Positions 13,791-51,945 of a DNA stretch of 64,000 nucleotides are shown here, piece by piece (within the stretch, counting starts at the first letter, position 1; each line of letters begins with the position of its first letter). Below the pieces are notes generated by a model. That model saw only the letters and a list, made by a program, of their open reading frames with translations, was not told the origin of the DNA and did no database searches. The DNA lies in NCBI GenBank assembly GCA_041650835.1, contig JBAZKL010000003.1, positions 99,682-163,681 of the forward strand, written 5' to 3'. This stretch comes from Candidatus Omnitrophota bacterium. GTDB taxonomy: Bacteria > Omnitrophota > Gorgyraeia > Gygaellales > Profunditerraquicolaceae. A program made the translations under genes and the position numbers.

Positions 13791-13795
13791 ATGAT

Positions 13796-13872: not shown

Positions 13873-13883
13873 GTATAAAAAGA

Positions 13884-13925
13884 AAGCGAAGATCCTAGAA
13901 AATAGAGTCTTCGCTTTTTTGTTTG
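13884..13925 (+). terminator. Rho-independent terminator after ftsB and tRNA-fMet
   Basis: An 8-bp stem (AGCGAAGA...TCTTCGCT, 13885-13892 / 13908-13915) is followed by TTTTTTGTTTG. Confidence 0.6.
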
Positions 13926-34912: not shown

Positions 34913-35037
34913 AAAGTCTAAAGAACAAAGGAAATTCAAAGACTAAATAACAAATTTTAAAATTACCTGACTGCAGACAGGAACCTTGAACCTTAAACCT
35001 TTAACCTTCCTTTGTTATTTAGCCTTTAGACTTTAAA
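34913..35037. repeat. Copy A of a ~125-nt hairpin-forming intergenic repeat element (REP/MITE-like)
   Basis: The imperfect inverted-repeat arms are AAAGTCTAAAGAACAAAGGAA (34914-34933) and TTCCTTTGTTATTTAGCCTTTAGACTTTAAA (35007-35037). The right arm matches copy B at 50700-50730 with 3-4 mismatches. Both copies contain AACCTTAAA between the arms. Confidence 0.5.
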
Positions 35038-35160
35038 CTTAACTTGTCATACCTAATTACCAATAATTAAGTCACAGGTCACAAAGAATCAGAAACTAGT
35101 GAATTAGAAGATCGAAAGGCTGGAAAGACGAGACTCTGGGGACTAAAAATCGAAGCTATA

Positions 35161-36834
35161 TTATACTGTTTTGTCCTGTAATTTAAACTTTTGTACCGTT
35201 TCCTTTAATTCTACGGCCAAACGGGCAACTTCCTGGCTCGAAGCGGCAACTTCCTGCATGGAAGCAGTTTGCTCCTGGGTATTCGCCGAAACATGCTCTA
35301 TCGCGGTTGCCGACTCTTTAGCTATCTGCGTAACTTCGCTTATTACCTTTACCATGCCCTCTATCTCAGCAACACTATCCTGGCCGGTAGAAGCAATATG
35401 GTTAACAAATACGGTAGCCTCCTGGGCAACCTTATTAATCTCCCCCAAAACCTCAGTTATTTTAGCTACCTGGGCCCGGCCGCCCTGGACTTCTTTTGAA
35501 CTGGCTTCAATGGAATTAACCGCGCGATTAGTTTCTTCCTGGATCAACGTGATCAGCCCCCCGATCTTACGCACAGCTTCAGCTGCGCCCTCAGCGAGCT
35601 TTCTAACTTCTTCGGCAACTACCGCGAAGCCTCTCCCCGCGTCTCCAGCCCTGGCGGCCTCAATTGCCGCGTTAAGCGCCAAAAGATTGGTCTGATCCGC
35701 GATAGAAGTGATAGTCTCGGTGATCTCTCCTATCTGCTGCGAAGTCTTGCCAAGCCCCTGAACAACAGAAGTTGTCTCTAAGACCGTATTTGTCAAATGG
35801 CTTATTCTTTCTACAGTTTCCAAAGCTGCGATACGCGCGCTTTCCGCGCAAGCCGTTGTCTGGCCAACCGCCCTATGCGCCATTTGAGCATCTTTAACCA
35901 CATCCTTAAGATTATCAGCTGCCCGGCCCATAGCTTCAAATACCCCATTGATCTGCTTTGCCTGAGTATTGGCGCCTTTACTTACCTGCGCCACGGAATA
36001 AGCGACTTCTTGCGTTGAAGAACTCATTTCCTGAATAGTATGCGTCGTCTCTTGTAAAGAAAACGCCACCTTATCGGCAATTCCGCTGATCTGAGCGATC
36101 ATGTCGCGTAACCCTTGAGACATCTTAGAGAATGCTTTCGACAACTCCAGCATCTCATCATCGCCCTTCATCTCGATCGCCCCCAAAGAAAGATCACCGG
36201 AAGAGATTTTCTTAGCAATAAGCATAAATGCCGACAAGGGCCGTAAAACATGCTTTTCCAGGAAAAGGCTGTACAGTACACCCCCGCCGACCAAGACTAA
36301 GACGCATAAAAAAACCGCCAGCATGATAATGCCGTTAACATCCGCGATGATATACTTATCCGTAATTCCCACCCTCAAGATACCAACGGCCTGAGTGCCT
36401 GACATAACAGGAATAACCGCCTCGAAAACACTCCCATAGCCGGGCCGCTTAAGGATAAACTGGCTTTTTGCCTTAAGACAGCGCTTCTCATCCGCTGTTT
36501 TGTTCAGGTATTTTCCCTCCAGGTCCCGGCGCGTGGAAACCAACACCAACCCTTCTTTCTCAAGAAGGATAATATACTCAATATCGAAATTCCTGCCCCG
36601 GGCATCTTCGAATAAACGGGAAATCCGGTCTATCGCGCCGGATTCTAAAAGGTCCCTGCATGAAAGCGCAAGGCTTGACGCCATGTTCTCAGCCGCTAAC
36701 TGCTGCATCGAAAAAAGCTGGGCGCGCATTCTATAGCCGACAACCGACAGCACTATGGCAGTTACCAGGGAAACAACCCCGAGAAAATAAACCATCATTT
36801 TCAATTTCATCCGGGAGCTATTCGCGAGATCCAT
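35161..36834 (-). CDS. Methyl-accepting chemotaxis protein
   Basis: 557 aa with two TMs flanking a ~150 aa periplasmic domain, a HAMP domain, and the signalling hairpin [38 protein letters not shown]. Confidence 0.9.
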
Positions 36835-36979
36835 ATACCCTCTGAAGCTGTTGAGAATTTAACGAACGGTTACTGATCTTGTATTGAATAAACAGCAAAA
36901 ACTGCTTTCGCTTGATAAAAAAGGCTGGAACAAATCAAAAACCCTGAAGACATCCTTCGATAAGGCAGGCAGGCGAAGC

Positions 36980-37504
36980 TTAACTTTCTTTTTCTTTACC
37001 TTCTTTCAGCACAGACGCGGAGGAGCCCTTCACCCGCTCAACATGCTGCACTTCTTCGGGGCTCAAGACGCTCTTAAGGTCTAAAAGGATCAAAAGCCTG
37101 TCTTTTAATTTCCCGACCCCCCAGATATAATGTTCAGGGATCTCCGTCATAACCAGCGACGGGACGTCTTCAACATATTCTGAAGATAACCGCAACACTT
37201 CTGAAACCGAATCCACGATCATGCCCACGGTGTTATCGCCGAATTCCACGATAACGATACGGGTGCGCTCCCCGCGTTCTTTAGCGGTAATACCCAATCT
37301 TTTCGCCAAATCAATAACAGCGACTACCTGGCCGCGCAAATTAACGACACCTTCGATAAAAACAGGAGCCTTGGGTAAATAGGTGATTTGCAGCAACCGG
37401 ACAATTTCCCTTACCTGGCTTATATCAACACCAAACTCTTCTTCCCCGATCGTGAAAACAACCAACTGGTATTCTTTTAATTTACTTTCAGCCATGAGGA
37501 TCAC
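36980..37504 (-). CDS. cheW: Chemotaxis coupling protein CheW
   Basis: 174 aa with a CheW-like SH3-type domain (EYQLVVFTIGEEEFGVDISQVREIV...). Confidence 0.9.
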   Translation of the reverse strand: MILMAESKLKEYQLVVFTIGEEEFGVDISQVREIVRLLQITYLPKAPVFIEGVVNLRGQVVAVIDLAKRLGITAKERGERTRIVIVEFGDNTVGMIVDSVSEVLRLSSEYVEDVPSLVMTEIPEHYIWGVGKLKDRLLILLDLKSVLSPEEVQHVERVKGSSASVLKEGKEKES

Positions 37505-37531
37505 CCCCTGTTATGAACTGCCCGGAAATAA

Positions 37532-38143
37532 CTATTCTTTTAATCCTAATAAATCAAATATTTTCAACAATGAGTCCGTTGACGGGAACAACAAAAACAA
37601 GCCTTCGAGATTCAACCCCTTAACTTTCATATCGGTCTTGATCACAATCGCCTCTTCCGAATACTGCGCGATCTGTATAAAAATAAAATCCAGGATAGCA
37701 CCCACCATATCCATCGCTAACGAAGGGATAGAAGTAAGGATGTTTTGGTGGACCATGTCGGCCAAAGCGGATAAATACGACCCGCCTAAGATATTCGCTG
37801 ATTCTTTTAAAGAGGACTGGAACAAGGAATCGTTAAAATCGATCTGGTCTTTAGGCAAACCCAGAAGGCTGCTGGATAAAAGCCGCGCGTCATTCGGAGA
37901 AAACAATAAAAATATCCTCCCGTAAATATCCCCCTTGATCTCCATATCTAAAACAAAAAATAACCGGTCCATTTCCCCTAATAATTTATAAATCTGCTCC
38001 AAGGGAACCATGGTAACTTCAGGGACGTTGATCTCGACTTTCTCAGCGACCAGATCGGCCAAGGCAGTAGCGGCATTGGCAGCGCCGATAGTGCCGATCT
38101 CTCTTATCAGATCCATCTGAGCTAAAGAAAACTTTTTATCCAT
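37532..38143 (-). CDS. cheC: CheC-family phosphatase
   Basis: 203 aa. Repeat 1 is DLIREIGTIGAANAATALADL, with N replaced by T. Repeat 2 is SLKESANILGGSYLSALADM, with E..N retained. Confidence 0.75.
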   Translation of the reverse strand: MDKKFSLAQMDLIREIGTIGAANAATALADLVAEKVEINVPEVTMVPLEQIYKLLGEMDRLFFVLDMEIKGDIYGRIFLLFSPNDARLLSSSLLGLPKDQIDFNDSLFQSSLKESANILGGSYLSALADMVHQNILTSIPSLAMDMVGAILDFIFIQIAQYSEEAIVIKTDMKVKGLNLEGLFLLFPSTDSLLKIFDLLGLKE

Positions 38144-38164
38144 GACCGATTCCTTTTTTATTAA

Positions 38165-39208
38165 CTATATTTTTTCTAATATCGCTTTCGCTATATCAAA
38201 AACAGGCAGCACCGCGTCAGACAAGCCGGCATCATAAATAACTTTCGGCATACCCCAGACAACCGATGTCTTCTCATCCTGGATAATTACCGTACCGCCT
38301 TTTTCTTTTATTTTCCTTACCCCTTCCAAAGCGTCCTTACCCATCCCCGTCAAGACTACCACGACAACATTCTTACAGTCATAATTCTCAACGACCGACA
38401 ACAGTGTCACATCCGCTGCAGGGCGGACAAAATTCACGAGAGGCCCCTGGTTCAATTTTATCCTTAAAACCCCTTTTTCATTTTCAATCCCCATATGGGA
38501 GCCGGCAGGCGCGACAAAAGCTTTTCCAGCGACAAGAATATCGCCCTCCTCAGCCTCTTTAGCCTTGATCTTTGACTGCCAGGAGATCCTTTCAGCAAAG
38601 CTTAAGGTAAATCCCAGCGGCATATGCTGGATTATCAAAAAAGACGCGGGGACATTCGCGGGGATATCCCGCATAACATCTAACACCGCTTTCGGGCCGC
38701 CCGTTGAAGCCGCTATCAAAACCAGCTTCTTAAAGGCGATCGGTTTTACCTCCGCGCCAAAAGTATCTGCTTTAAATTGTTCTTTTGAAGAGACCTTCGT
38801 CACCTCAACCTTAGCCGCTAATTTTATTTTCGCGATAATCTCATCTTTAAGCTTATTGATATCTAAAGAAATCTCGCCTGATGGCTTGGCAACAAAATCA
38901 ACCGCCCCTAACTCCAGCGCCCGCAATGTCGCGGTCGCGCCCGCGCGGGTATACGCGGAGATCATGACAACGCGCGATGGCTGTTTTTTCATTACTTCTT
39001 CAAGGACGCTTAACCCATCCAGCAAAGGCAAGTTTATATCCAAAGTGATCACGTCGGGCTTGAACTCGTATATTTTTTCCAAAGCCTCTTTACCGTCTTT
39101 CGCTTTACCGATTATTTCCAAAGCCGGATCGCTCTCAATAATATCGGAAATGATCTGGCGCATCAAGAATGAATCGTCAACGATTAAAACACGTATTTTA
39201 TTTTCCAT
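38165..39208 (-). CDS. cheB: Chemotaxis methylesterase CheB (REC plus methylesterase)
   Basis: 347 aa. It has an N-terminal receiver domain (VLIVDDS...DVITLDINLP) and a C-terminal catalytic domain (ASTGGPKAV, IIQHMPLGFT). Confidence 0.9.
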   Translation of the reverse strand: MENKIRVLIVDDSFLMRQIISDIIESDPALEIIGKAKDGKEALEKIYEFKPDVITLDINLPLLDGLSVLEEVMKKQPSRVVMISAYTRAGATATLRALELGAVDFVAKPSGEISLDINKLKDEIIAKIKLAAKVEVTKVSSKEQFKADTFGAEVKPIAFKKLVLIAASTGGPKAVLDVMRDIPANVPASFLIIQHMPLGFTLSFAERISWQSKIKAKEAEEGDILVAGKAFVAPAGSHMGIENEKGVLRIKLNQGPLVNFVRPAADVTLLSVVENYDCKNVVVVVLTGMGKDALEGVRKIKEKGGTVIIQDEKTSVVWGMPKVIYDAGLSDAVLPVFDIAKAILEKI

Positions 39209-39696
39209 TATACTTCTTTCTCTCCCCAGGAAACCGTTTTAACCAGGACCTTACCGTCATCCAAATTAAGCTCGATCGTTCTCCCGAAACTACCGCCCGT
39301 TTCCTGGACATCGACCTTCATATCTAAAGCCTTAAGCGTGATCATGGCAACTTCAAGGTTCTTTTGGCCGACATTAAGGATACTATCGGAAGCAATAAAA
39401 CCGAACATATGCGCTCCGCCGAAAAGCTTGGTAACAATTGAGCTGCGCGACACGCCCCGCTTCTCCATTTCTTCGACCATCTTCGTAAGAGCGGAGTTGA
39501 CAAACCGGCTGGGATTTGATTTAATCTTGGCTTTCTCGATATCAGGGAGCATCGGATGCGCCATCACGCCGATCTTCTTTGACGGGTCATACATAGTGAT
39601 ACCTAAACAGGAGCCAAGCCCCCGGGTGATCAATCGTGCAGGGGCTTCGGATATTTCCATTTGAGCCATATTTACTTCAATGGTTTTTGCTTCCAT
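39208..39696 (-). CDS. cheD: Chemoreceptor glutamine deamidase CheD
   Basis: 162 aa with GLGSCLGITMYD and GVMAHPMLP motifs. Confidence 0.85.
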   Translation of the reverse strand: MEAKTIEVNMAQMEISEAPARLITRGLGSCLGITMYDPSKKIGVMAHPMLPDIEKAKIKSNPSRFVNSALTKMVEEMEKRGVSRSSIVTKLFGGAHMFGFIASDSILNVGQKNLEVAMITLKALDMKVDVQETGGSFGRTIELNLDDGKVLVKTVSWGEKEV

Positions 39697-39709
39697 GATA
39701 ATCGTACCC

Positions 39710-40081
39710 CTATCCTCCTATAACTCTTTTTAATGCCTCCACGACGCGTGAAGGTTGAAAAGGTTTTGTTACAAAATCCTTGGCACCTGCCTGAATAGCT
39801 TCAACAACCAAGGAATGCTGCCCCATAGCCGAAACCATGATGATCTTCGCCTGCGAATCCACTTTCATGATTTCCTTGACCGCGCCAATACCGTCGATCT
39901 CTTCAACCTTCGGCATGACAATATCCATCGTGACTAAGTCGGGTTTAAGCTGCTGATATTTATCGATCGCATCTTTGCCGTTCTCAGCCTCACCGCAAAT
40001 CTCTATACCTTCCTTCTTGAGAATATCGGAAAGCATCCGACGCATGAACAACGCATCATCAACAATTAATACCCGTGCCAT
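39710..40081 (-). CDS. cheY: Chemotaxis response regulator CheY
   Basis: 123 aa single-domain receiver (LIVDDALFMRRML, DLVTMDIVMP, SAMGQ, KDFVTKPF). Confidence 0.9.
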   Translation of the reverse strand: MARVLIVDDALFMRRMLSDILKKEGIEICGEAENGKDAIDKYQQLKPDLVTMDIVMPKVEEIDGIGAVKEIMKVDSQAKIIMVSAMGQHSLVVEAIQAGAKDFVTKPFQPSRVVEALKRVIGG

Positions 40082-40136
40082 CTGCTACCTCCTTTGTATT
40101 TTTGAATCAGGCCTTCTTTAAAGTCCCGGAATACAT

Positions 40137-40982
40137 TTATCCGATTTTCTGGTAAATCTTATTCTTATTGCCCGGTTCTGCCGCCGTGAATAAATCTTTT
40201 TGCCAAACATTTTCCACTTTGCCGACGGTCAAATACCCTTTCGCGTTAAGCGAGCTATAGAACTTCCGGGTAAATTCCTCCTGCTGTTGGCGGGTGAGGT
40301 AAATCATAATGTTCCGGCAGCAAACCAGGTCCATGAACTGCAAATACGGTTCGGTTATCAAATTGTGCTGCTGGAACTTCACCATCCCCTTTATTTCGTC
40401 TTTCAATTTGTAAACGTTATTATAAACTGGTATGAAATATTTATCAAGCGTTTTCTTATCTAACTTTTTTAACTCGATAGCCTTATATTCGGCTTTCGCC
40501 GCTTTATCCAATGCTTCCCGGTCCATATCGGTAGCGATGATCCTGAGGGAATAATCCCCCCGGCTGGCCAATTCTTCTTTCAGCATGATCGCCAGGGAAT
40601 ACGGCTCTTCTCCGGTCGCGCACGCCGCGGACCAAACCCGCAGCACCCGGTTATTCATTTCGGCCTTACGCTTGAGGATGTCCGGGATCACAACGCTGCG
40701 CATTGCCTGGAAAACTTCTATATCGCGGAAGAACTCGGTAACATTAACGCCAAGGGTATTCAATAAAAACCCGAATTCTTCGGGGGTCTTTCGGATATAC
40801 CCCTCATAATCCACATACCGCTCCAGCTTCAGATTCGACATACGCACGCGCAAGCGCCGCAAAACAAAACTCTTACGATACGAGCTTAAGTCGATACCCT
40901 TTTGTTGCCGGATATAAGCAAGGAGCGACAAAAATCCCGGATCTTTTAAATATTCCGCTTCCTGGGGATCCTGCATATTCAT
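40137..40982 (-). CDS. cheR: Chemotaxis methyltransferase CheR
   Basis: 281 aa with a CheR N-terminal helical domain and a SAM-binding domain (RVWSAACATGEEPYSLAIML). Confidence 0.9.
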   Translation of the reverse strand: MNMQDPQEAEYLKDPGFLSLLAYIRQQKGIDLSSYRKSFVLRRLRVRMSNLKLERYVDYEGYIRKTPEEFGFLLNTLGVNVTEFFRDIEVFQAMRSVVIPDILKRKAEMNNRVLRVWSAACATGEEPYSLAIMLKEELASRGDYSLRIIATDMDREALDKAAKAEYKAIELKKLDKKTLDKYFIPVYNNVYKLKDEIKGMVKFQQHNLITEPYLQFMDLVCCRNIMIYLTRQQQEEFTRKFYSSLNAKGYLTVGKVENVWQKDLFTAAEPGNKNKIYQKIG

Positions 40983-40989
40983 TCTATAA

Positions 40990-41253
40990 TTAATGACGCG
41001 GGTTCTTGCTGATATGCAAGATCGCTTTTGTTAATTCTTTAACGACGTCTGCGCGGAACTGGGTGCCTTGTTCATTGAGCTTGGTAAACACCCGCCCCTT
41101 ATCGGTAATGACATAATTCGGCGGTAGCCTGTTCAAAGCCCAAACCATAATATCAAACTTGCATTTCTGGCATTTACATATATCCTCGATCTCGGAGAAT
41201 AATTCATTCAACTCATCTTCAACAATATCTTCCATGTAATTATGTATTTGCAT
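40990..41253 (-). CDS. ComFB-family protein (late competence ComFB-like; candidate cyclic-dinucleotide receptor)
   Basis: 87 aa. It shows the ComFB hallmark cysteine cluster and downstream motif ICKCQKCKFDIMVWALNRLPPNYV. It is embedded inside the che operon with an 8 bp gap to cheR. Confidence 0.75.
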   Translation of the reverse strand: MQIHNYMEDIVEDELNELFSEIEDICKCQKCKFDIMVWALNRLPPNYVITDKGRVFTKLNEQGTQFRADVVKELTKAILHISKNPRH

Positions 41254-41412
41254 GAATGCCTCCTTGTAGCTTCATTATTCGGCTGCTGCAACACCGATAA
41301 CCTTACACCCCCCGCGCTGATCGCACCTTGACTTATCGGATAGCCAAGTGCGCGCTTTCTGCGCAGGAATTGCGCGGGGTATGCTGCTTTCTGCAGCACC
41401 GATAACCGAATA

Positions 41413-43560
41413 TTAAACTCTATCCTCAAACAATATCTGAACCCTAGCCCCTTCAGTTAAAGGCGTCACAAATCCCGCAGGGCTATCATTAACCAGGATC
41501 CTGATCTTTTTCCCAAAGCCCTTGTAAGGATCAAAGTCAATATACTTGAATATATCGGAAAGCAGGATCTGTCTTTTCTTTACGTAATAGACCTTTATAT
41601 CCGCGCCATCGATCAAGAATTCATCAAGTTTGACCTGCTGGCCGTTCATAAAGGCCTGCACCGCCTCAAAGGCCATATCAATATCTTTACCGTCTACGGT
41701 CACATGTATCGTATCATGCATTTTAGGCAAGTCAATAATATCTTTGATCCGGTAATAGGTCGGGGTATCCGCGACAAATTCCAGGAAATCATTTTCCTTC
41801 AATTCAGCATCCAAGCCGGTCAATTGCCCATTAAGCCTCAGCGTAAAATTCTGCTGGGTCAATATCCGCGGGGCCTCATTGACATTAACCAGGATCTGGC
41901 GTTCAGACAAATTATCCATGCCGATACCCTGAAACTCCAAAAGATCGCGAACCCGGGGGCCAATCGTTTCAATAACAGCGCGGTCGGGCACCATTGCTTC
42001 CGCAGCGCGCCGGATACCGTTCACCAAAACAGGGGCGTTGAATTTCACCTGCTGACGGTTAAATATTACGGAAACCGCCTGAGGGGCGACAACTTCCTGC
42101 AAACGAACACACCCGTCAACGCCGTCAACGGCTTCAACAAAGGTGAGGGAATCCCCATCTTCTACTTGATCAGCGAGAGAATTAACCGGGTTACCGTTTA
42201 AACTTACCGTTGCTGAGCCGCCGAGGCTACCTTTAAAAATCCGCAGCTCCCCATTGACTTCAGCCGTCAAAGACAAACCGGGGCGGGGAAACAGCTTCTT
42301 GTTCACAATCACCCCTGATGCCGTCAATACGGCCATGATATCTTTTTTTTGCTGAAAATCCAGCATCCGTAACGGCCGGCCGTTGACCGTAACATTAATA
42401 AAACGCAATCCTAAAGACTGCATCGTCATGAGCGTAATACCTATGGGAGTTATGGTTTCCGGCCCCTTGAGCTTCCCGGTAAGGTCATGGACACTCTTGA
42501 TCATATGCGGCAGGCGTACGCCAACCTTGTGAGGGGCGATCCCAAAGCCTTTCGCAAGCTCCTGGACCAGGTCAAACGTCTGGCTTGCCCCTCCGACAAC
42601 AACAACAGCTTCGGGAGGCCCTTCATTCAACGCAAGGCCGGCCTGAGCGATCGATGCCGCTAATTTGTTAACGGCAGGTAACAGGTTTTTCTTAAGGGTG
42701 AAAATATCGATACGCTGAGGCTTTCCCCAAATATCTTCATAGGCGACCATGACATCGTGATCCAGGGAGCGCTTGATCCGTTCCGCGGAAGAGAAATCCA
42801 CCAGCAAAACCTTGGAAATATATTCCGTGATCTCATCACCCGCTTCGGGGACCATGCCGTAGGCGAAAACAAACCCGCCCTTGGTCAAGGCCAGATCAGA
42901 CGTTCCGGCACCGATATCAATAAGGACGATATTAAGGCTGCGCATCTCCGGGGGGACAATAGCATTGAGAGCGGCAATAGGCTCAAGGGTCATATTAATC
43001 GCCTCAAGCCCGGCCTTTTCCAACACGGCGAACATGCTGTCTAAAACTACGCGCGGCAAGAATGTCGCAATAACCTCGACACAGATCATTTTCCCGCGAT
43101 GGCCCCGGAGGCTGGAGATCCGGTTATTATCCAGCTCGTAATAAACAGGACTGTAGCCGACGCAATAAAATTCAGAGAGCTTGTTCCCCGAATTAGAAAC
43201 GATCGCCTCGATAGCTTCCAACTCCAGGTCACGCACGATCGCCGGAGTGATCTCCTGCTCCGTGCCAAGTTCTTTGGAAACCTTACTTTTATGCGCGGCC
43301 AGATTTCTCCCGGCGACCGCTACCCCGACTTGCCTGAGCTTCCTGCCCAGGCGCGATTCAAGGCTTTCTTTTATCTTAACGACGGTCTTGACGACCTCTT
43401 CAATGCTATGGATCTGCCCGTCGAACATCGGGCGCGCCGCATGTTCCCGGACCTCCACATCGACGATCTCGACATGCTCATCCTGCTGACGGGCAACAAT
43501 CCCCATCACCTTGCGTGTCCCGATATCCAACGCAAATATTTCCCGCGCCATAGGAATCAT
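41413..43560 (-). CDS. Actin-like ATPase (FtsA/PilM/EutJ superfamily) N-terminal half fused to a C-terminal array of 4-5 small ThiS/MoaD-like (beta-grasp) repeats
   Basis: 715 aa. The N-terminal ~370 aa carry ASKHA motifs: FALDIGTRKV (phosphate-1), LIDIGAGTSDLAL (phosphate-2) and VVVGGASQ (adenosine). The C-terminus repeats a V/L-x-V/L-N-G...L..GD.I.F/V pattern (VTVNGRPL; SLNGNPVNSLADQVEDGDSLTFV; RLNGQLTGLDAELKENDFLEFV; MNGQQVKLDEFLIDGADIKVYYV; LVNDSPAGFVTPLTEGARVQILF). Its start overlaps the upstream cheC by 4 bp (ATGA). Confidence 0.6.
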   Translation of the reverse strand: MIPMAREIFALDIGTRKVMGIVARQQDEHVEIVDVEVREHAARPMFDGQIHSIEEVVKTVVKIKESLESRLGRKLRQVGVAVAGRNLAAHKSKVSKELGTEQEITPAIVRDLELEAIEAIVSNSGNKLSEFYCVGYSPVYYELDNNRISSLRGHRGKMICVEVIATFLPRVVLDSMFAVLEKAGLEAINMTLEPIAALNAIVPPEMRSLNIVLIDIGAGTSDLALTKGGFVFAYGMVPEAGDEITEYISKVLLVDFSSAERIKRSLDHDVMVAYEDIWGKPQRIDIFTLKKNLLPAVNKLAASIAQAGLALNEGPPEAVVVVGGASQTFDLVQELAKGFGIAPHKVGVRLPHMIKSVHDLTGKLKGPETITPIGITLMTMQSLGLRFINVTVNGRPLRMLDFQQKKDIMAVLTASGVIVNKKLFPRPGLSLTAEVNGELRIFKGSLGGSATVSLNGNPVNSLADQVEDGDSLTFVEAVDGVDGCVRLQEVVAPQAVSVIFNRQQVKFNAPVLVNGIRRAAEAMVPDRAVIETIGPRVRDLLEFQGIGMDNLSERQILVNVNEAPRILTQQNFTLRLNGQLTGLDAELKENDFLEFVADTPTYYRIKDIIDLPKMHDTIHVTVDGKDIDMAFEAVQAFMNGQQVKLDEFLIDGADIKVYYVKKRQILLSDIFKYIDFDPYKGFGKKIRILVNDSPAGFVTPLTEGARVQILFEDRV

Positions 43561-44177: not shown

Positions 44178-44189
44178 TTTTACCTTTGC

Positions 44190-46184
44190 CTAACGCAGGC
44201 TCATCGTATCTAAAATCAACGCGACTTTCCCGTCACCCAGTATCGTCGCTCCCGCAATTCCCTTTGTCCGCTTGATCAACGCCCCTAAAGGCTTGACGAC
44301 AATATCTTGTTCGCCTAATACCTGGTTGACGACCAAACCGGCTGCTTTTGTGCCGTATTCAATAATGATCACGGACAAACTTGTATCTTCGGCGGCATCA
44401 AGCTGTAACGCCAGCTTCTTAATATCGAGTTCTTTCTGCAGCCGGATGATCGGGATGATCTCATCCCTGACCCGCGCCACTTCAAAATTCTGTATGATCC
44501 GGAGCTCTTCTTCCTGGATCTTAATGATCTCCCGGACGCTCATTAAGGGGATCGCAAAGACCTCGTTACCCACCTTGACCAGCATCGCCTTGATGATCGC
44601 CAACGTCAACGGCAGCGTCAGGATAAAACGGCTCCCCTTACCGGGCTCGGTTTCAAATTCAAGCCTGCCCCCCAGGGATTCGATCTTGGATTTAACGACA
44701 TCCAGCCCTACGCCCCTGCCTGAAATATCGGTTACTTTCTTGGCGGTCGAAAAGCCGGGCAGCGTGATCAGGTCAAGGATCTTTTTTTCATCAAGGCCTA
44801 CGGCTTCTGCTTCCGTTATCAGTCCTTTCGTAAGAGCAACGTTCTTGACTGTCGTGAAATTAACGCCCCTGCCGTCATCGGCTATCTCAATGAAGATCTG
44901 GCCTTTCTGCCTGCTGACCTGAATAAGCAATTTGGCGTTCGGCTTCTTGCCGGCAGCGCTGCGCTCCTCGGGGTTTTCGATACCATGATCAATAGCATTG
45001 CGTATCAAATGCACCAGCGGGTCGCTCATTTCATCAAGGACCACGCGGTCCAATTCGATCTCACTCCCGCTGATCTCCAGCTCCACCTGTTTATTCTGCT
45101 TCCGGGCCAGGTCCCTGACCATGCGCGGAAAAGTATCCAGGATATAAGCGACCGGTAATAACCGCGTCTGCATGATCTCATCTTGCAGCGACGAAATAAG
45201 CCGGTCGAGCATCGAACTGACATCTTCTAAAGGGTCTATCTTATACTGCTGAGAGATCTGCATCAGGCGGATCTTAGCGATCGCCAGCTCCCCCATCAAA
45301 TTCATGATCTTATCCAAACGTTCCACCGGCAGGCGCATACTCTGGATCTTCTTGACATAATGCTGGGCAGGAGCAGCGACGGTAGCGGATGAAGCAGCCC
45401 CCCCTGCTACGGCAGGACGGACATTGATTTCAAGGGAATTGATCTCCACCTTCTCGATCTCCGAGATAGTCAACAAGACCCGGTTGATCGTTTCTTGAGT
45501 CTCTTTTGTTTCCAGGATCAAGGTAAAGGTAAAATCAAATTTACCCTCTTTCAGGCAATCAAGCGCAGGCAAGGACTTAATGATCTCTCCGCTGCGTTTG
45601 ATATTATTAACCACCAGGTACGCGCGGGCCTCACGCATGACACAATCCTTGGAAATGATCACTTTGACCTTATAGATATTATGCTTGAGGTCCTTTGCCA
45701 GGTTTATTTTTTTAAGCTCTTCTTCGCTGAACTCAATATCCCCGTTCCCTTCTAAAACCTTCTTCGCCGGTCCGGTTGAACCCGAGGCAATTTTCTCCAC
45801 ATCGGGCTCCTGGGTAAAAATATCCTTCAAATCCTGCAAAAAAGGATTAATGTCGACCTTGGATTCCTGTTTGGCTTTTATTTCCTCGACTAATTTTTCC
45901 AGGAGGTCAACGGTAGCAAAAAGCTTATCGATGATCTCTGAGGTGACCTTCTTGCGCTGGCTGCGCAACTCATCCAGAAGGTTCTCCATATGGTGGGATA
46001 ACTGGGTAAGTTTATCAAACCCCATCGTTGCCGACATGCCTTTTAAGGTATGCATACAACGGAAGATCTCATTCAACGAACTTAAGTCGGCGGGATTTTC
46101 TTCAAGTTTAACCAGGCAATTACTGATAACGCTGAGGTATTCTTCGGACTCGGTAAGAAATAATTCTCTATAGCTATCCTGCAT
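44190..46184 (-). CDS. cheA: Chemotaxis histidine kinase CheA
   Basis: 664 aa. It has an HPt domain (FRCMHTLKGMSATMGF), a dimerisation domain, a HATPase_c domain (DDGRGV, GRGVGLDVV) and a C-terminal CheW-like domain. Confidence 0.9.
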   Translation of the reverse strand: MQDSYRELFLTESEEYLSVISNCLVKLEENPADLSSLNEIFRCMHTLKGMSATMGFDKLTQLSHHMENLLDELRSQRKKVTSEIIDKLFATVDLLEKLVEEIKAKQESKVDINPFLQDLKDIFTQEPDVEKIASGSTGPAKKVLEGNGDIEFSEEELKKINLAKDLKHNIYKVKVIISKDCVMREARAYLVVNNIKRSGEIIKSLPALDCLKEGKFDFTFTLILETKETQETINRVLLTISEIEKVEINSLEINVRPAVAGGAASSATVAAPAQHYVKKIQSMRLPVERLDKIMNLMGELAIAKIRLMQISQQYKIDPLEDVSSMLDRLISSLQDEIMQTRLLPVAYILDTFPRMVRDLARKQNKQVELEISGSEIELDRVVLDEMSDPLVHLIRNAIDHGIENPEERSAAGKKPNAKLLIQVSRQKGQIFIEIADDGRGVNFTTVKNVALTKGLITEAEAVGLDEKKILDLITLPGFSTAKKVTDISGRGVGLDVVKSKIESLGGRLEFETEPGKGSRFILTLPLTLAIIKAMLVKVGNEVFAIPLMSVREIIKIQEEELRIIQNFEVARVRDEIIPIIRLQKELDIKKLALQLDAAEDTSLSVIIIEYGTKAAGLVVNQVLGEQDIVVKPLGALIKRTKGIAGATILGDGKVALILDTMSLR

Positions 46185-46212
46185 AAAAGGCCTTCAAGGA
46201 TTGTGTATTGTA

Positions 46213-46821
46213 TTATTCGCCGATGCTTTTAATAATAAGCTCCAGCCCCACCGAGTTGGGGATCAGGAAAAAATGCCCCCGGATGGAAGCTTTGAGTTCC
46301 GTAAATTCAGATTCGATCAAAAGGGCAAACTCAGACGTACAACTTAATTCGATCAAAACATAATCAAGCATTGCCCCCGCCATATCAATGATCAACTCCG
46401 GCACAGTCGGGACCAACCCCAAGCCGACAAAGCTCCCTAACGCCCCCAAATAAGCGTTAGCGAGTATCACCCCTACTTCTTTTAACGCAGAACGCTCGAC
46501 ATCGCCGATAACGCTTCCGCCGGAAACCGGCTTGCCGGTCATCAGCCCCGCGAGGGCAAGCGCGTCTTTCTGGGAAAAGATAAAAATAATGGTGCTCGGT
46601 AAATCGCCGAGGACCCGTAAAACCAGGCCCGCGACAAGCTGATCATCGCCGCCGACGGCATTCGGGACCTCTTCAATAGGAAGAAACAATATCCGGGGGA
46701 CAACGATACTAATATTGGTATCGAGCAACTGCGATAGCGCGGTCGCGGCATTACCGGCACAAATATTGCCGATCTCCTTCATCGCGTCTTTTTGCTTATC
46801 GGTAAAAGCCATATCAGCCAT
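46213..46821 (-). CDS. cheC: CheC-family phosphatase
   Basis: 202 aa with a canonical first repeat (DAMKEIGNICAGNAATALSQLL). The second repeat has E but N replaced by V (SALKEVGV). Confidence 0.85.
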   Translation of the reverse strand: MADMAFTDKQKDAMKEIGNICAGNAATALSQLLDTNISIVVPRILFLPIEEVPNAVGGDDQLVAGLVLRVLGDLPSTIIFIFSQKDALALAGLMTGKPVSGGSVIGDVERSALKEVGVILANAYLGALGSFVGLGLVPTVPELIIDMAGAMLDYVLIELSCTSEFALLIESEFTELKASIRGHFFLIPNSVGLELIIKSIGE

Positions 46822-46869
46822 TTCGCTTACGCTCCTCCTGCGTTTACGTGCAAATAAATAAACGGTCGG

Positions 46870-47256
46870 TTACAATCTTTTTTCCGCCGGAAGCAAAGCA
46901 TTACGGACCGCCTCCACCAGCCGGATCGCCTGGACCGGCTTCGTCACAAAATCTTTGGCTCCCGCCCGTATCGCCTCCACAACCAACGACTGCTGCCCCA
47001 TAACCGAACAAATCAATATCTTCGCGTTCGGGTCGATTTTGACAATTTCCCTCACAGCGCCGATACCGTCAAGCTCTTCCATCATAGGCATGACAATATC
47101 CATAGTCACCAGATCAGGCTTGAACTCTTGATACTTCACAACCGCATCTTTGGCGTTCGAAGCTTCAACGCAGATCTCGTAACCTTCTGCGGTCAAGATC
47201 TTGGCGATCATTTGGCGCATAAAAACAGCATCATCAACTATCATAATTTTTGCCAT
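46870..47256 (-). CDS. cheY: Chemotaxis response regulator CheY (second copy, first gene of the operon)
   Basis: 128 aa single-domain receiver (IMIVDDAVFMRQMI, DLVTMDIVMP, KDFVTKPV). It is ~60% identical to the CheY at 39710..40081. Confidence 0.9.
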   Translation of the reverse strand: MAKIMIVDDAVFMRQMIAKILTAEGYEICVEASNAKDAVVKYQEFKPDLVTMDIVMPMMEELDGIGAVREIVKIDPNAKILICSVMGQQSLVVEAIRAGAKDFVTKPVQAIRLVEAVRNALLPAEKRL

Positions 47257-47273
47257 ACATACCTCTCGTAAAA

Positions 47274-47301
47274 ATTATAAGCTACTCTGACATTATGTCA
47301 A
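47274..47301 (-). promoter_or_regulatory. Candidate sigma70-like promoter for the che operon
   Basis: On the minus strand: TTGACA (47301-47296), a 16-nt spacer, then TATAAT (47279-47274). The RBS AGAGG and the ATG follow within ~18 nt. The predicted TSS would fall at or inside the SD, so the leader would be very short. Confidence 0.3.
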
Positions 47302-47357
47302 GAGAAATCGTCCTTTTCCAATTCCCTCTTAAGTTTTTTAATCCAAGCTACTTACCG

Positions 47358-48134
47358 TTATTTTTTCTTAAGCGATCTTGTTTTGATAACGTCAGAGATC
47401 ACCCCCCAGCCGCATAAAAAACCGCAGGCTGCATAAAACAGCGTTATCACCAAGCGGTCGGCAACCGCCAAAGCAACAGACTGTTTAAAAGGCACCCCTG
47501 TCTGCATCAACAAGAACGTCATCCCGCTTTCCTTGATACCGAGCCCTGAGGGAAGAGGAGAAAGATATCCCATGGTAAAGGAAATGGCGATAAGCTTAAC
47601 CATTTCCCCCCAGGGGATACGCACGCCGAACACCTTGAATAAAAACCAATAATAACAGACGCCGGAGATAATATTCAAGAGCGCAAGCGGCGCCACGGCA
47701 AGAATATTACGGCTCGTTCCTTTAAAATACCCCGCGGCGTTGCTGATAAAATCACCCAGCCGCTTTCTTTTATTCAGGATAAAAAAGAAGGCCAGCGCAA
47801 AAAAAACGATCAAGAACCAATGGGTGCGCGCCGCAAGCTGCGCGCCGAAATATAACCCGGCGATAATCCACGGCAAGACAGAAAAGAGCTCGAGAGCGGC
47901 GAATGACGCAAGGCTTTTATATAACGGGACAGAGTCATTCTTAAGCGCCGCGCTTGCCAATGCGTAGCCGGAACCCGTCAAAAATATCTTATTCAACGCC
48001 CCCGCAACGATCGTCCCTTGTATCGCTTTTCCCAAAGAAACCTGCCGATTAAGTAAGATCCAAAAAACACATGAGCTTAAAAAAACACTCATTCCTAACG
48101 CCAAGAAAATAAATACCCCATAGACGATCGTCAT
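47358..48134 (-). CDS. Polytopic membrane protein (lysylphosphatidylglycerol-synthase TM-region / UPF0104 flippase-like)
   Basis: ~258 aa with 7-8 TM helices. Start chosen at the second ATG (MTIVYGV...) because it forms a 4-bp ATGA overlap with the upstream methyltransferase stop; the track start is 48146. The family call is weak. Confidence 0.4.
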   Translation of the reverse strand: MTIVYGVFIFLALGMSVFLSSCVFWILLNRQVSLGKAIQGTIVAGALNKIFLTGSGYALASAALKNDSVPLYKSLASFAALELFSVLPWIIAGLYFGAQLAARTHWFLIVFFALAFFFILNKRKRLGDFISNAAGYFKGTSRNILAVAPLALLNIISGVCYYWFLFKVFGVRIPWGEMVKLIAISFTMGYLSPLPSGLGIKESGMTFLLMQTGVPFKQSVALAVADRLVITLFYAACGFLCGWGVISDVIKTRSLKKK

Positions 48135-48793
48135 CGTTTCCGGCACACACCCGTTAATCCTTTACACCAAGGAGTAAACCTGCTCAAGAAGCCGTGGAAT
48201 TTGCGCACAGATGAAAACCGGCGCCACGGCAGGAGCCATCCGAAACGCCCGTATAAACACACTTCCGGGAAACTCTTTTCTAACAGCGCTTTAAACTCGA
48301 AATAATCCAGTTCCGAGAAATGCGTGGGATGCTTTTCTCCGGTCAGGGCGCAATATACCCAAAACAACGGCTTATTCGGCGTCGAGATCACGAATGTTCC
48401 CGAAGGAGACAGCACCCGGGATATCTCCTCAAGAAAACCCCGGTGAAACAACCGATGAGGGAGATGTTCAATGACTTCGATAGCGCAGACTGTCTCAAAA
48501 GAATTATCCTTAAAAGGGAGCTTACGCGCATCCGCGCGGACAAAGCTTATTCCTGCCGCGCCTGCCAACCGGCGAGCCCTGAGGAGCCTGCCGGCGGAAA
48601 TATCCATCGAGATCAACGTGTCGCAGCGGCCGCGGATATCTTTGGCCCACATGCCGTCTCCGCAGCCGATCTCCAGGCACCTTCCCCGTACATGCGTAAG
48701 CACAAAATCAACAAACTCCCGGGAGCCGCTTTGCCGATGCGCCTGCTTTGCCGCGGAAAGCTCTAAAGAATCCAAGTATGTTTTTTCATTCAT
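48131..48793 (-). CDS. Class I SAM-dependent methyltransferase
   Basis: 220 aa with motif I (LEIGCGDGMW) and motif post-I/II (ISMDIS; VCAIEVIEHL). Confidence 0.7.
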   Translation of the reverse strand: MNEKTYLDSLELSAAKQAHRQSGSREFVDFVLTHVRGRCLEIGCGDGMWAKDIRGRCDTLISMDISAGRLLRARRLAGAAGISFVRADARKLPFKDNSFETVCAIEVIEHLPHRLFHRGFLEEISRVLSPSGTFVISTPNKPLFWVYCALTGEKHPTHFSELDYFEFKALLEKSFPEVCLYGRFGWLLPWRRFSSVRKFHGFLSRFTPWCKGLTGVCRKR

Positions 48794-48794
48794 A

Positions 48795-49502
48795 TTATTT
48801 CCGCGCTACCATGCTGTAACCCAGCGTATCTTCTTCATTCTTGTTCAAACATTCCAATAAAACAAACGACGATTGGACAAGAGCGCAGGTAAAAAGCTTT
48901 AAAGCCTCCGCGGCGGCGGATCGCGGCCTGCCGCCGGCATAATAAAGGTAATTACTTAACCGCTGGCCCATCATCTTCCAGAACCCTCCCCGCGCTTTAA
49001 CAGTGACTTGCGTAAAGCCGGCCGTTGCCGCCAGGTAACTTAAGCCGTAACGGGTAAAACGGTAATAATCATGCGGGGCCTCATGAATGCCCCAATCCAT
49101 CGGCGCTGTTAAGATAAGGCAGCCGCCTTTTTTGAGCACCCGGTAAGCTTCCCGGAATAACACCTGGGGGCGGCGGACATGCTCAAGCGCCTGGATAGAC
49201 AAGACCGTATCAAAGCTATTATCCCTGAACGGCAGTTCCTCTGCCGAGCCGTAAATATCCGGCTTGCCGGATGAAGTTGTTACATCGAGCCCGATATAAC
49301 GCGAACAGTAACCGTCAAAAACCGCCTGGTATGGCTTTTCACCGCAGCCTATATCCAACAAAACCCCTTTGGCATCTATGCGGCAGGAGATGAGCGCGTC
49401 AAGTATCGACTGTTTTTCGATCCGCTGCGGATGCAGCCAGGGAAACCTCCCCCTGAGGATATACGCTGAACGTTTTTTCCTGAAAATTTCCCTGGCATTC
49501 AT
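48795..49502 (-). CDS. Class I SAM-dependent methyltransferase
   Basis: It has motif I (LLDIGCGEKPY) and VLKKGGCLIL. The ATG at 49502 overlaps the GT4 stop as ATGA. The track start at 49553 is a TTG and would overlap GT4 by 55 nt. Confidence 0.65.
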   Translation of the reverse strand: MNAREIFRKKRSAYILRGRFPWLHPQRIEKQSILDALISCRIDAKGVLLDIGCGEKPYQAVFDGYCSRYIGLDVTTSSGKPDIYGSAEELPFRDNSFDTVLSIQALEHVRRPQVLFREAYRVLKKGGCLILTAPMDWGIHEAPHDYYRFTRYGLSYLAATAGFTQVTVKARGGFWKMMGQRLSNYLYYAGGRPRSAAAEALKLFTCALVQSSFVLLECLNKNEEDTLGYSMVARK

Positions 49503-50602
49503 TGAGCGCGCGCTTTCAGATAATGAGCGATCCTTGTTATCACCTTCTGCCAATCATACTGACTGCTTAAACGCAGGCCCTGTTCAGAAAGTGTTTTAAG
49601 TTGTGCAGAAGAGCTTAAGGTTGCATGCAACAGGCTGGTTAAATCCCTGACATTATTCTTCTCAAACCGCGGCAGCCCTAAATCCGGACAGCCGGTAGAA
49701 ACAAGCGTCGGCGTAGCAGAAGCCATCGCCTCCAGAGCTGCCAGGGGTAATCCTTCATAGAGAGAAGGTAAAACGAACAGGTCCGCGTGACGATAAACTG
49801 CCGGAAGGCTTTCATAGGGGACCTTGCCCAGGAATTCAACGGCAAACGGCAGCTTCGCGGCTTGAGCGCGTAAACGTTTTTCCTCCCTGCCAACACCGGC
49901 TATCCGCACCGCGATCCCGGTGCTGCCGGGAAGGTTCTTTACCGCGCTCAACAAAATATCGATCCCCTTCCTGGCATCCAGCCTGCCGGCATAGAGTATT
50001 GTTTTTACCGCCTGCCCGAAGCTGCGCGCCGATACGGGTTTAAAAAGCCCCGTATCCACACCGTTAGGAATGATCTCTATTCTTTCTTTCTGCGCCCCCA
50101 TAAACTGAAGCTCCTCCGCCATATCCCGAGAAAGAGCGATGAGCCCGGAAGCTTTCTTTAACAATGTTTTCTCATAAGGGATATACGCCTTATTCAAAAA
50201 AGCGTACAAGGGCCTGCCCATTAATACGCAAGCCTTATACTCTCCATAGCGGCTGCCCTGAAAATGAGCCACGAGCGGCCGGGTTATCCGGCAGACAAAA
50301 GGAGAAGACAGGCTGTATAACAAATCGAATCTTTTTTCTATCTTCGGTATTATGCCGCCGGCATAGTAAGCAAACGACGGCATCCGGGTCAAAAAAGTCT
50401 TACCCAAAAGCGGGACACGGTAGAGCGAAACCAGCCCTCTCGTTTCTTTCCTGACTTTATATATCGTCGGATCACCCGCGATTATCGTCAACTCAATCCC
50501 GTGCTCTGGAAGAAGGCGTTCGATATAACCTGAACAAACTCCCATCCCCCCTTTTGCGTAGGGAGGATGGTCACGGCTTAACATTAAGACCTTCATAGCC
50601 AT
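49499..50602 (-). CDS. Glycosyltransferase family 4 (GT-B, retaining)
   Basis: 367 aa with an N-terminal GGMG motif (PYAKGGMGV) and a C-terminal E-x7-E motif (EGLPLAALEAMASATPTLVS). Confidence 0.8.
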   Translation of the reverse strand: MAMKVLMLSRDHPPYAKGGMGVCSGYIERLLPEHGIELTIIAGDPTIYKVRKETRGLVSLYRVPLLGKTFLTRMPSFAYYAGGIIPKIEKRFDLLYSLSSPFVCRITRPLVAHFQGSRYGEYKACVLMGRPLYAFLNKAYIPYEKTLLKKASGLIALSRDMAEELQFMGAQKERIEIIPNGVDTGLFKPVSARSFGQAVKTILYAGRLDARKGIDILLSAVKNLPGSTGIAVRIAGVGREEKRLRAQAAKLPFAVEFLGKVPYESLPAVYRHADLFVLPSLYEGLPLAALEAMASATPTLVSTGCPDLGLPRFEKNNVRDLTSLLHATLSSSAQLKTLSEQGLRLSSQYDWQKVITRIAHYLKARAQ

Positions 50603-50622
50603 AAATTATTTTCTTAAGTTTA

Positions 50623-50730
50623 AAAGCTAAAGATCAAATAACAAAGGAAACTCAAAGGTTAAAGTTTCAATTCTAAAATTTAACCTTAAAACTTTAATCT
50701 TCCTTTGTTCTTTAAACTTTAGACTTTAAA
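50623..50730. repeat. Copy B of the hairpin-forming intergenic repeat element
   Basis: The arms are AAAGCTAAAGATCAAATAACAAAGGAA (50623-50649) and TTCCTTTGTTCTTTAAACTTTAGACTTTAAA (50700-50730). It lies 17 bp downstream of the epimerase stop and ~20 bp upstream of the GT4 start. Confidence 0.5.
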
Positions 50731-50761
50731 ATTATCTTATTACTCCTGATTCTATTAAACA

Positions 50762-51856: not shown

Positions 51857-51901
51857 AGTATCGTTATTGTCGTTAGTATCGTTATTGTCGTTAGTATCGT
51901 T
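51857..51901. repeat. Tandem repeat of 18 bp x 2.5 copies, immediately 5' of the epimerase start codon
   Basis: AGTATCGTTATTGTCGTT, AGTATCGTTATTGTCGTT, AGTATCGTT. It is followed by degenerate AACGA-rich sequence up to 51945. Confidence 0.7.
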
Positions 51902-51945
51902 TAATATGTTCAACGAAAATAACGAATACAACGGAACTAACGATA

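Follow-up and report, generated by a model that had tools for sequence, protein, structure and literature searches.

Two intergenic hairpins of an Omnitrophota genome belong to a previously undescribed A+T-rich repeat family

Two A+T-rich palindromic sequences lie 15.7 kb apart in intergenic spacers of a 64,000-nt stretch of a Candidatus Omnitrophota genome (contig JBAZKL010000003.1; hereafter the window), and they raise the question of whether they are copies of one repeated element and, if so, of what kind it is and how it spread. Omnitrophota is a widespread, almost wholly uncultured phylum, and a literature search combining Omnitrophota and repeats returned nothing relevant on dispersed repeats in its genomes. 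Our analysis firmly supports that the two sequences, copies A and B, are members of a previously undescribed, A+T-rich, hairpin-forming intergenic repeat family in an uncultured Omnitrophota clade. It is the family itself that is new; the general kind, palindromic intergenic repeats, is already known. Below, copies A and B are also referred to as winA and winB, a third copy from the same genome is copy C, and L-numbers denote loci from relatives or metagenome contigs.

Both sequences are present where a first-pass annotation of the window had placed them, and pairwise alignment together with profile search established that they are homologous. The homologous units are wider than that annotation had drawn them, extending over about 34885-35057 and 50603-50750. 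Copies A and B align over about 150 nt with 81% column identity and a single 23-nt indel at the apex (72% identity in the family-wide pairwise comparison), and the similarity persists under proper alignment, including multi-copy alignments. The 31-nt right arm described earlier as near-identical matched with no mismatches at 35007-35037 and 50700-50730. The same pattern also matched the opposite arm of copy B with three mismatches, against a shuffle expectation of 0.00 matches, and TTCCTTTGTTNTTTRRNCTTTARNNTTTA, which comprises the core and three 7-nt units (heptads), matched all four arms of A and B, with 0 matches expected. When nhmmer profiles were run against the 64-kb window, A and B were the sole significant places (E 1e-32 to 1e-47), the next having an E-value of 0.85. 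The absence of expected shuffle matches and the extreme E-values rule out chance or low-complexity similarity. The features of the two loci are as follows.

34873..35086, + strand: copy A composite, core plus shared flanks; the flanks align with L004, L005 and L086 at unrelated loci
34885..35057, + strand (family orientation): copy A, core palindromic repeat (nhmmer envelope, E 4e-42 and 9e-35)
34924..34933, + strand: core motif AACAAAGGAA in the copy A left arm, read from the sequence; pairs with 35007-35016
34966..34981, no strand: apex mini-palindrome CCTGACTGCAGACAGG, a (CCTG)n(CAGG)n form nested centrally in copy A; single match in the window
34981..35040, + strand: heptad arrays of the copy A right arm (Tandem Repeats Finder), (GAACCTT) x4 at 34981-35008 and (TTTAGAC) x3.3 at 35018-35040
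35007..35037, + strand: right arm of copy A (31 nt), with core TTCCTTTGTT and then the heptads TTTAGCC, TTTAGAC and TTTAAA
35161..36834, - strand: methyl-accepting chemotaxis protein (MCP) gene, last of the che cluster (Pfam MCPsignal, HAMP, sCache_3_2)
49499..50584, - strand: GT4 glycosyltransferase gene (Pfam; gene call of L001; sequence), its likely start at 50584 preceded by GAAGG
50603..50750, + strand: copy B, core palindromic repeat (nhmmer E 1.5e-31 and 1.4e-32)
50640..50649, + strand: core motif AACAAAGGAA in the copy B left arm, read from the sequence
50700..50730, + strand: 31-nt right arm of copy B, exact pattern match
50762..51856, - strand: UDP-GlcNAc 2-epimerase gene (Pfam Epimerase_2), 364 aa as judged from homologues; orthologues are 364 aa long

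Folding bore out the proposal that the elements form hairpins. Each copy folded, from either strand, into one long imperfect hairpin (z -4.3 to -5.3), with minimum free energies (MFE) on the two strands of -29.5 and -38.4 kcal/mol for copy A and -27.6 and -35.0 kcal/mol for copy B, and none of 200 shuffles folded as stably. A and B are the two longest local inverted repeats of the window. The copy A arms (34897-34941 and 34999-35043) are 78% complementary; those of copy B (50615-50672 and 50677-50734) are 58 nt long and likewise 78% complementary around a 4-nt loop, which makes copy B the longest local palindrome in the window. The GC content is 0.29 for copy A and 0.21 for copy B. Copy A is embedded in a larger composite, in which the left flank is GGTTAAGTAGTTGGATTATTTAACG and the right flank CTTGTCATACCTAATTACCAATAATTAA is followed by GTCACAG/GTCACAA heptads; the MFE hairpin of this extended region spans 204 nt at -51 kcal/mol.

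The gene context also proved to be as first described, both copies lying 3′ of minus-strand stop codons, those of the MCP and epimerase genes. Copy A starts 103 nt past the MCP stop, within a 910-nt spacer before an Alginate_exp-type porin gene. Copy B starts 11 nt past the epimerase stop, ends about 20-35 nt upstream of the GT4 start at 50584 and nearly fills the gap between these genes. All four flanking genes (MCP, porin, epimerase and GT4) are on the minus strand, so that the transcript around copy A carries the reverse complement of the family '+' orientation, and no open reading frame (ORF) of at least 80 aa overlaps A or B beyond the ends of the flanking genes.

The first-pass annotation had made its reading depend on further copies, and these exist: a third in the same genome and eight full copies in relatives. 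Copy C (L106, 17559-17723) lies about 5.3 kb beyond window position 1 and fills the 173-nt spacer that separates a phosphoglycerate-mutase-like gene from mnmG/gidA, giving three copies in 73 kb of this genome (the window contig extended by 9 kb). A strict arm pattern run against a genome collection returned three loci, all in the sister metagenome-assembled genome (MAG) CAZPNW01 and together holding four copies; because this pattern misses copy C, counts from the pattern scan are underestimates. Profile screening of metagenome loci recovered the same three CAZPNW01 loci from JGI samples and added contigs L036, L086, L094 and L096 with full copies, L042 with a truncated one and L067 with right-arm fragments, or half-copies. 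A looser 18-base pattern run against the metagenome collection gave matches that, among those listed, were mostly due to chance, and its counts are not quantitative. The viral collection contained no match to the family, which argues against a phage origin.

All copies are intergenic and occur in both orientations, the orientation relative to transcription being mixed at about 6 to 5. They occupy the slot that runs from the stop codon of one gene to the ribosome-binding site or promoter of the next. The genes flanking them (MCP, epimerase, ABC-F, NuoB, RadA, PIN, Macro-NUDIX, DEAD helicase and SIR2) are functionally unrelated, which rules out a link to one gene type.

The host lineage is recognizable from the neighbouring genes. 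The MCP has a 100% identical counterpart that NCBI names as coming from a Candidatus Omnitrophota MAG, and among the named homologues of the epimerase and of RadA the nearest likewise belong to Omnitrophota. Syntenic loci were found at increasing distance, with epimerase identities to the window of 92% for L098 and 86% for L099, the latter from MAG CAZPNW01 (GCA_964588175.1, labelled Planctomycetales), and identities of 75-83% for L100 and L101 from GCA_041662125.1. CAZPNW01 (L003-L005 and L099) is filed as 'uncultured Planctomycetales bacterium', although it is syntenic with, and shares 85-86% protein identity with, the lineage named Candidatus Omnitrophota; its label is probably a loose or outdated taxonomic assignment. 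Separately, L103 (Logan SRR8542065), a contig from another dataset that was compared with window positions 12249-13900, encodes an enolase identical to that of the window and has the same upstream genes. Downstream of enolase the two part ways, with tRNA-Met and a PMT-family gene in the window and a DivIC-family gene in L103, which is either a strain-level rearrangement or an assembly difference.

Alignment of the copies revealed a common anatomy that the first-pass annotation, while right about a repeated hairpin, had lacked: a build of 7-nt units, a nested GC-rich mini-palindrome and composite flanks. Cores measure about 130-170 bp, composites up to about 330 bp. The arms are arrays of degenerate 7-nt units (TAAAGNN, then AAGGTTN) that meet at the core AACAAAGGAAG/CTTCCTTTGTT; followed in the direction of the flanking genes, they run (NNTAAAG)n, (NAAGGTT)n, the apex AATTTTAAAATTA and then the complementary arrays. 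Lag-7 autocorrelation was pronounced in 10 of 10 copies tested (z 4.5-7.2; 6.5 for copy A), and the number of heptads varies between arms and between copies. Family GC content ranges from 0.20 to 0.33, compared with 0.46 for the window. The core junction is essentially invariant and the core pairs nearly so in 10 copies, and right-arm CTTCCTTTGTTNTTTA did not vary among the six copies aligned first and hardly varied among 10. The MFE values are -26 to -52 kcal/mol for cores and fall to -77 kcal/mol for composites, the lowest belonging to the composite hairpins of more than 220 nt in L004 and L005.

The apex is an indel hot spot at which short inserts have been gained and lost. In half of the copies (5 of 10), a 12-20-nt (CCTG)n(CAGG)n mini-palindrome sits exactly at the symmetry centre: the insert is shared at the same position by copy A, L005, L086, L094 and L003b and is cleanly absent (AAAATTA|AACCTT) from L004, winB and L003a. 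L004 and L005, otherwise 86% identical, differ by a clean 16-nt indel of this mini-palindrome. It also occurs on its own in spacers (L003:3137, L086:4698 and L098:7114, with longer variants in L099 at about 11215-11300) and had no match in 462 kb of unrelated metagenome loci; it is a small dispersed repeat of this clade in its own right.

Flanking modules are shared in a similar fashion. The flank GGRTTATTTAACGTTAATGATAAAG is common to winA, L004, L005 and L086; a (TGTGACN)n array with TTATTGGTAGTTAGGT is common to winA, L086 and L004; and in L094 the left end is of the L003b type and the right end of the L004 type. The copies are thus mosaics of shared modules. Within the family, winA, L004, L005, L086 and L094 make up a subfamily with 75-87% pairwise identity at five unrelated loci in two species, while the other copies are 60-74% identical.

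Comparison of orthologous slots showed how these spacers change between relatives. The epimerase–GT4 slot holds copy B in the window and, in the outgroup L100, a recognizable orthologue whose centre has been replaced; the intermediates L098 and L099 carry GGTCGCA-type heptamer arrays and (CCTG)n(CAGG)n hairpins instead, homology returning about 10 nt before the GT4 start. In L100 (11150-11235), about 85 nt of other sequence stands in place of the hairpin centre of the degenerate copy B orthologue, and it includes CCGCCACAAAGCATGGCGG followed 11 nt later by a T8 run, an arrangement that is terminator-like in the gene direction. Copy A is absent from the MCP–porin spacer of L101, the distal part of which is unrelated or unalignable and the promoter-proximal 330 nt of which are about 90% conserved. 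The radA–PIN slot is a 3-nt gap in L105, contains GTGAC heptamers between conserved flanks in L104 and holds a 310-nt composite element in L005.

Some of the copies have diverged less than four-fold degenerate sites. Between the window and L100, which are at 75% protein identity, identity is about 90% in one outer arm of copy B and 82% in the other, as against 57-58% at four-fold sites. Subfamily copies at non-orthologous loci of the two sister species are 83-87% identical, compared with 75-78% at four-fold sites. Such above-neutral identity indicates constraint, concerted evolution or spread near the species split.

That palindromes of this general build can arise in place is illustrated next to copy B. 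The four longest local palindromes of the window are all intergenic and all made of short tandem units, and one of them lies at the following position.

51857-51945: palindrome of 9-nt units, filling exactly the gap between the stop codon of a 510-aa gene and the epimerase start

In the sense direction it reads TAA, TATCGTTAG TTCCGTTGT ATTCGTTAT TTTCGTTGA, a loop and then the right arm ACGATACTA ACGACAATA ACGATACTA ACGACAATA ACGATACT before ATG. The outgroup L100 has just TAA-TTTCGTT-ATG in this slot, and unit counts in three relatives are 4/5, 4/5 and 6/6 (4+5 in L098, 6+6 in L099). Because the outgroup holds the seed-only state, the palindrome grew in place with its arms roughly matched. Folding would set the AAAGG with which the upstream ORF ends beside the AUG, forming a possible split ribosome-binding site. 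A second hairpin, of heptamers, occupies window positions 2504-2603 (and 2610-2650), with (GGTCACA-type) x5, a loop and (TGTGACY-type) x5 followed by (GCTGGGGCACTGGCG) x2.7, about 80 nt upstream of tRNA-Thr(CGT). GTCACA/TGTGAC heptamers also flank winA, L086 and L004 and fill orthologous spacers of L098, L099 and L104.

The porin spacer downstream of copy A has features of its own. About 330 nt upstream of the Alginate_exp porin gene (34250-34580) are about 90% identical to those of a relative, as against about 57% at four-fold sites. Within them lie a perfect TTGACA-16-TATAAT promoter (34555-34528, minus strand) and some 280 nt of leader, inside which 11-nt units, (TATCTACAGCT) x4.3, occupy 34476-34522; the relative L101 has exactly one unit fewer. 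The region is a candidate cis-regulatory leader RNA and had no Rfam match.

What the hairpins do at the RNA level was approached from several sides. A scan of the window with Rfam 15 at gathering thresholds gave two tRNAs and nothing else, and a permissive scan gave just sub-threshold generic long-hairpin plant microRNA precursor models (20-26 bits, against gathering scores of 54-200), so that no known RNA family matches at or above its gathering score. Near copy B the single terminator-like site lies inside the GT4 gene, outside the element. The apex of L005 would qualify as a terminator in one orientation, with a 6-bp GC stem followed by TAATTTTA; half of the copies (5 of 10) are without the GC apex, and they lie in mixed orientations. 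The more stable, G.U-rich orientation falls in the sense transcript in 7 of 9 assignable copies, including all three of this genome, and in 6 of 7 in the two assigned genomes, a bias that is a weak hint of a role at the RNA level.

Taken together, these observations lead us to favour, with somewhat better than even confidence, a non-autonomous, lineage-restricted intergenic palindromic repeat that resembles ERIC (enterobacterial repetitive intergenic consensus) repeats, MITEs (miniature inverted-repeat transposable elements) and BIMEs (bacterial interspersed mosaic elements) and that is co-transcribed as an A+U-rich hairpin. The family would have multiplied by copy-and-paste of a non-autonomous unit, either through transposition by a trans-acting enzyme or, given the mosaicism and whole-spacer replacement, through recombination or template switching between palindromic spacers. 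For the mosaic flanks, the nested palindromes and the replacement of whole spacers, BIME-like recombination or template switching is no worse a fit than a MITE. The subfamily of winA, L004, L005, L086 and L094 probably spread around the split of the two sister species, and heptad slippage and nested insertions presumably diversified the copies later. Because the copies lie within or at the ends of co-directional gene strings, they would be co-transcribed, and in RNA each would form an A+U-rich hairpin of 45-60 bp. By analogy with ERIC and Correia elements, the hairpin would most likely either let RNases in (RNase III) or hold them up (a block to 3′ exonucleases) and could uncouple the stability of upstream and downstream mRNA segments; copies with a GC apex followed by UAAUUUUAAAAUU in the right orientation may serve as weak terminators. 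The proposed RNA-level role draws on the position in co-transcribed spacers, the fold and the published behaviour of ERIC and Correia elements (PMC2229807).

Several results weigh against this interpretation. The strict arm pattern gave just three loci in the sister MAG, though it would also miss copy C, and the conservation of one arm is partly an ascertainment bias, since that arm served as the search pattern. At none of the three orthologous slots (epimerase–GT4, MCP–porin and radA–PIN) is there a clean filled/empty pair, and closer relatives hold other tandem-unit palindromes in the epimerase–GT4 and radA–PIN slots rather than empty sites. The check for target-site duplications suggested in the first-pass annotation came out negative: none was found across the junctions of 11 copies, with no shared word above chance, and the same copies have fuzzy boundaries and no consistent terminal dinucleotide, hence no consistent TA termini. 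Across about 82 kb of this genome and in the surroundings of every copy there is neither a transposase nor a RAYT gene, and a terminator scan found no canonical intrinsic terminator at A or B. Covariation is lacking, as 22 of 23 consensus pairs are without compensatory change and most changes break pairs; one pair shows a double change, the covariation term is unfavourable (+0.81 kcal/mol) and the invariant pairs are uninformative. The comparison thus lends no support to selection on structure. The strand-stability trend, finally, is confounded with element orientation, as 8 of 10 copies favour the same family orientation.

The same evidence bears on other explanations. A classical MITE, that is, an internally deleted insertion-sequence derivative mobilized in trans by a transposase through terminal inverted repeats and leaving a short target-site duplication, would account for a small, non-coding, A+T-rich, end-to-end palindromic element dispersed through intergenic sites in both orientations, traits listed for such elements (PMC2229807). 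The core is 130-170 bp, although composites of about 330 bp exceed the 200-bp limit; there are three copies in 73 kb here and at least four in the sister MAG; and the arms of 45-58 nt are 78% complementary. Members of one subfamily, at five unrelated loci in two species, share 75-87% identity, the L101 spacer orthologous to that of copy A lacks the element, and the radA–PIN gap is 3 nt in L105 against a 310-nt element in L005. However, the complementarity runs over the whole length and not the termini alone, the ends are not sharp and the flanks are shared in varied combinations as mosaics, nearer relatives show replacement by other repeats, and the target-site duplications, 5′-TA-3′ termini and a candidate transposase are all missing from the sequences examined (about 82 kb of this genome and the surroundings of the copies); we therefore regard a classical MITE as a possible but doubtful explanation. 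Somewhat more doubtful still, and put forward tentatively, is a clade-specific process that builds, symmetrically expands and exchanges palindromes of 7-9-nt units in stop-to-start slots, with the TAAAG family as its dispersed product made without a transposase. This proposal draws on the growth in place of the 9-nt-unit palindrome, the repeated exchange of one type of palindrome for another at two slots independent of each other, the nesting of mini-palindromes exactly at apices, and the lack of target-site duplications and of any transposase found. Candidate mechanisms would be hairpin-templated slippage or template switching between palindromic spacers, and the RNA hairpins might be tolerated or selected since folding would keep upstream and downstream translation signals adjacent, in the geometry of a split ribosome-binding site. 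Another explanation, in which each palindrome originated independently by symmetric expansion of tandem units and the likeness is convergence, could point to the same 9-nt-unit palindrome, to the heptad arrays of the arms and to the differing heptad numbers. It is very improbable and effectively refuted, because copies at unrelated loci have in common a core free of repeats, AACAAAGGAAG...CTTCCTTTGTTATTTA, the same succession of unit types, the apex and extended unique flanks, and over 130-330 nt their identity is 60-87%, with nhmmer E-values as low as 1e-47. Such likeness is beyond convergence; slippage in place accounts for differences among family members but not for how the copies arose.

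A host-selected cis element, kept locus by locus and not selfish, would make the hairpin a bidirectional terminator or attenuator or make TTCCTTTGTTATTTA a protein-binding site. It would explain why, in a relative at 75% protein identity, conservation of the copy B outer arms greatly exceeds the neutral level and why TTCYTTTGTTATTTA persists in half-copies that lack the partner arm (L100, L042 and L067). Copy A, moreover, stands at the expected place of a terminator, between the last che gene and the strong porin promoter, where no other terminator-like site was found, and the L005 apex has its GC stem and TAATTTTA in the sense orientation. Against this, copies B, C and L003a lie between co-directional, tightly spaced genes at which full termination would be harmful, L098 and L099 have no element at the copy B site, and the mixed orientation, the blank terminator scan at A and B, the lack of covariation and the inflation of motif conservation by ascertainment bias all tell the same way, making this explanation quite unlikely. 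The direct orientation of A and B, 15.7 kb apart and bracketing a block of che and glycosylation genes, could suggest that they are the ends of a mobile unit such as a composite transposon, a genomic island or an integron-like cassette array. Integron attC sites, including Vibrio cholerae repeats (VCR), are likewise imperfect palindromes (about 60-140 bp) located 3′ of ORFs; they have R''/L''...L'/R' core sites (RYYYAAC...GTTRRRY) and occur in cassette arrays with intI nearby. The family core, AAC-AAAGG...CCTTT-GTT-ATTT, does not fit the R''/R' consensus (GTTRRRY) on reading the sequence, no integrase or transposase was found around the window, and other copies flank unrelated single genes. 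Synteny across the interval is the same in L099, which has no copy B, and in L100/L101, which have no copy A, and gene order across and beyond the two copies is unchanged in relatives that lack one or the other. The 15.7-kb interval, a conserved syntenic operon block, is therefore not a mobile unit, and both the island and the attC versions are so improbable as to be negligible.

A lineage-restricted repeat of this kind has practical uses. It can serve as a marker for strain typing and for checks of MAG binning, as in linking the Planctomycetales-labelled contigs to the Omnitrophota lineage; it flags sites prone to misassembly; and it points to spacers where operon mRNAs are likely to be processed. 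If they proved to be genome-wide, growth and replacement of palindromes in place would offer a natural system for studying the origin and turnover of hairpin spacers without an obvious transposase.

Among known systems, ERIC sequences (also IRU; 127-bp imperfect palindromes) are similar in size, in being imperfect palindromes over their whole length, in their occurrence in both orientations at transcribed intergenic sites inside or at the ends of operons, in their modest copy number with some orthologous retention, and in having variants that gain or lose internal sequence at fixed positions. ERIC RNA folds into a long stem-loop, which changes how stable the flanking mRNA is, and short terminal inverted repeats, TA ends and target-site duplications have been reported for them (PMC2229807, Table 1). 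The Omnitrophota family shows no sequence similarity to ERIC, belongs to another phylum, gave no sign of the TA ends and target-site duplications and differs in its much more A+T-rich arms of 7-nt tandem units. Correia (NEMIS) elements, Neisseria MITEs of 107 or 155 bp, offer a parallel in intergenic dispersal and in short and long forms set apart by an internal block, comparable to the apex insert. They have 24-bp terminal inverted repeats, a TA target duplication and an IHF site, and their co-transcribed hairpins are proposed to be cleaved by RNase III (PMC2229807). Correia elements are far more abundant, and in the Omnitrophota copies no target-site duplication or TA termini were found and no IHF consensus was seen.

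The tandem-unit build has its own parallels. Intergenic 7-nt arrays, several heptamer types per spacer and relatives with shorter, repeat-free spacers are shared with the heptamer repeats of other bacteria, among which STRR are heptamer direct repeats of Cyanobacteria. TAACTGA heptamer repeats occur in Beggiatoaceae, Cyanobacteria and Bacteroidetes, with a suggested post-transcriptional or translational role; they are almost always direct, the BOGUAY genome having 169 direct sets and one inverted set (PMC4679880). In the Omnitrophota family, in contrast, the units form matched inverted arrays that make one long hairpin with a unique core, copied to many loci. BrickBuilt, a MITE of Porphyromonas gingivalis with 19 intergenic copies, has internal tandem units with leader and tail modules (PMC4596501). 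It is likewise intergenic, species-restricted, low-copy and built of tandem units with flanking modules, but the units are 23-nt direct repeats, the inverted ends are small and no hairpin runs from end to end.

The first-pass annotation had called the elements REP/MITE-like, which holds in that they are repeated, hairpin-forming, intergenic and non-coding, of the REP, MITE and ERIC kind; they are far from repetitive extragenic palindromic (REP) sequences proper. REPs are associated with RAYT transposases. The main Omnitrophota element is 130-170 nt long and A+T-rich, with no RAYT gene in the sequence examined, whereas REPs are GC-rich, 20-40 nt long and tagged with GTAG or CGTC (PMC3733652). 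In size, GC content and independent dispersal the nested (CCTG)n(CAGG)n mini-palindrome resembles a REP; its sequence, CCTGNCTGNNGNCAGG, carries neither tag in the copies seen. The likeness to BIMEs lies in mosaic, modular spacers assembled from a few palindromic modules in varying combinations. By analogy, then, the family appears to work like ERIC, Correia or BIME elements, and we liken it to these rather than file it as a proven MITE.

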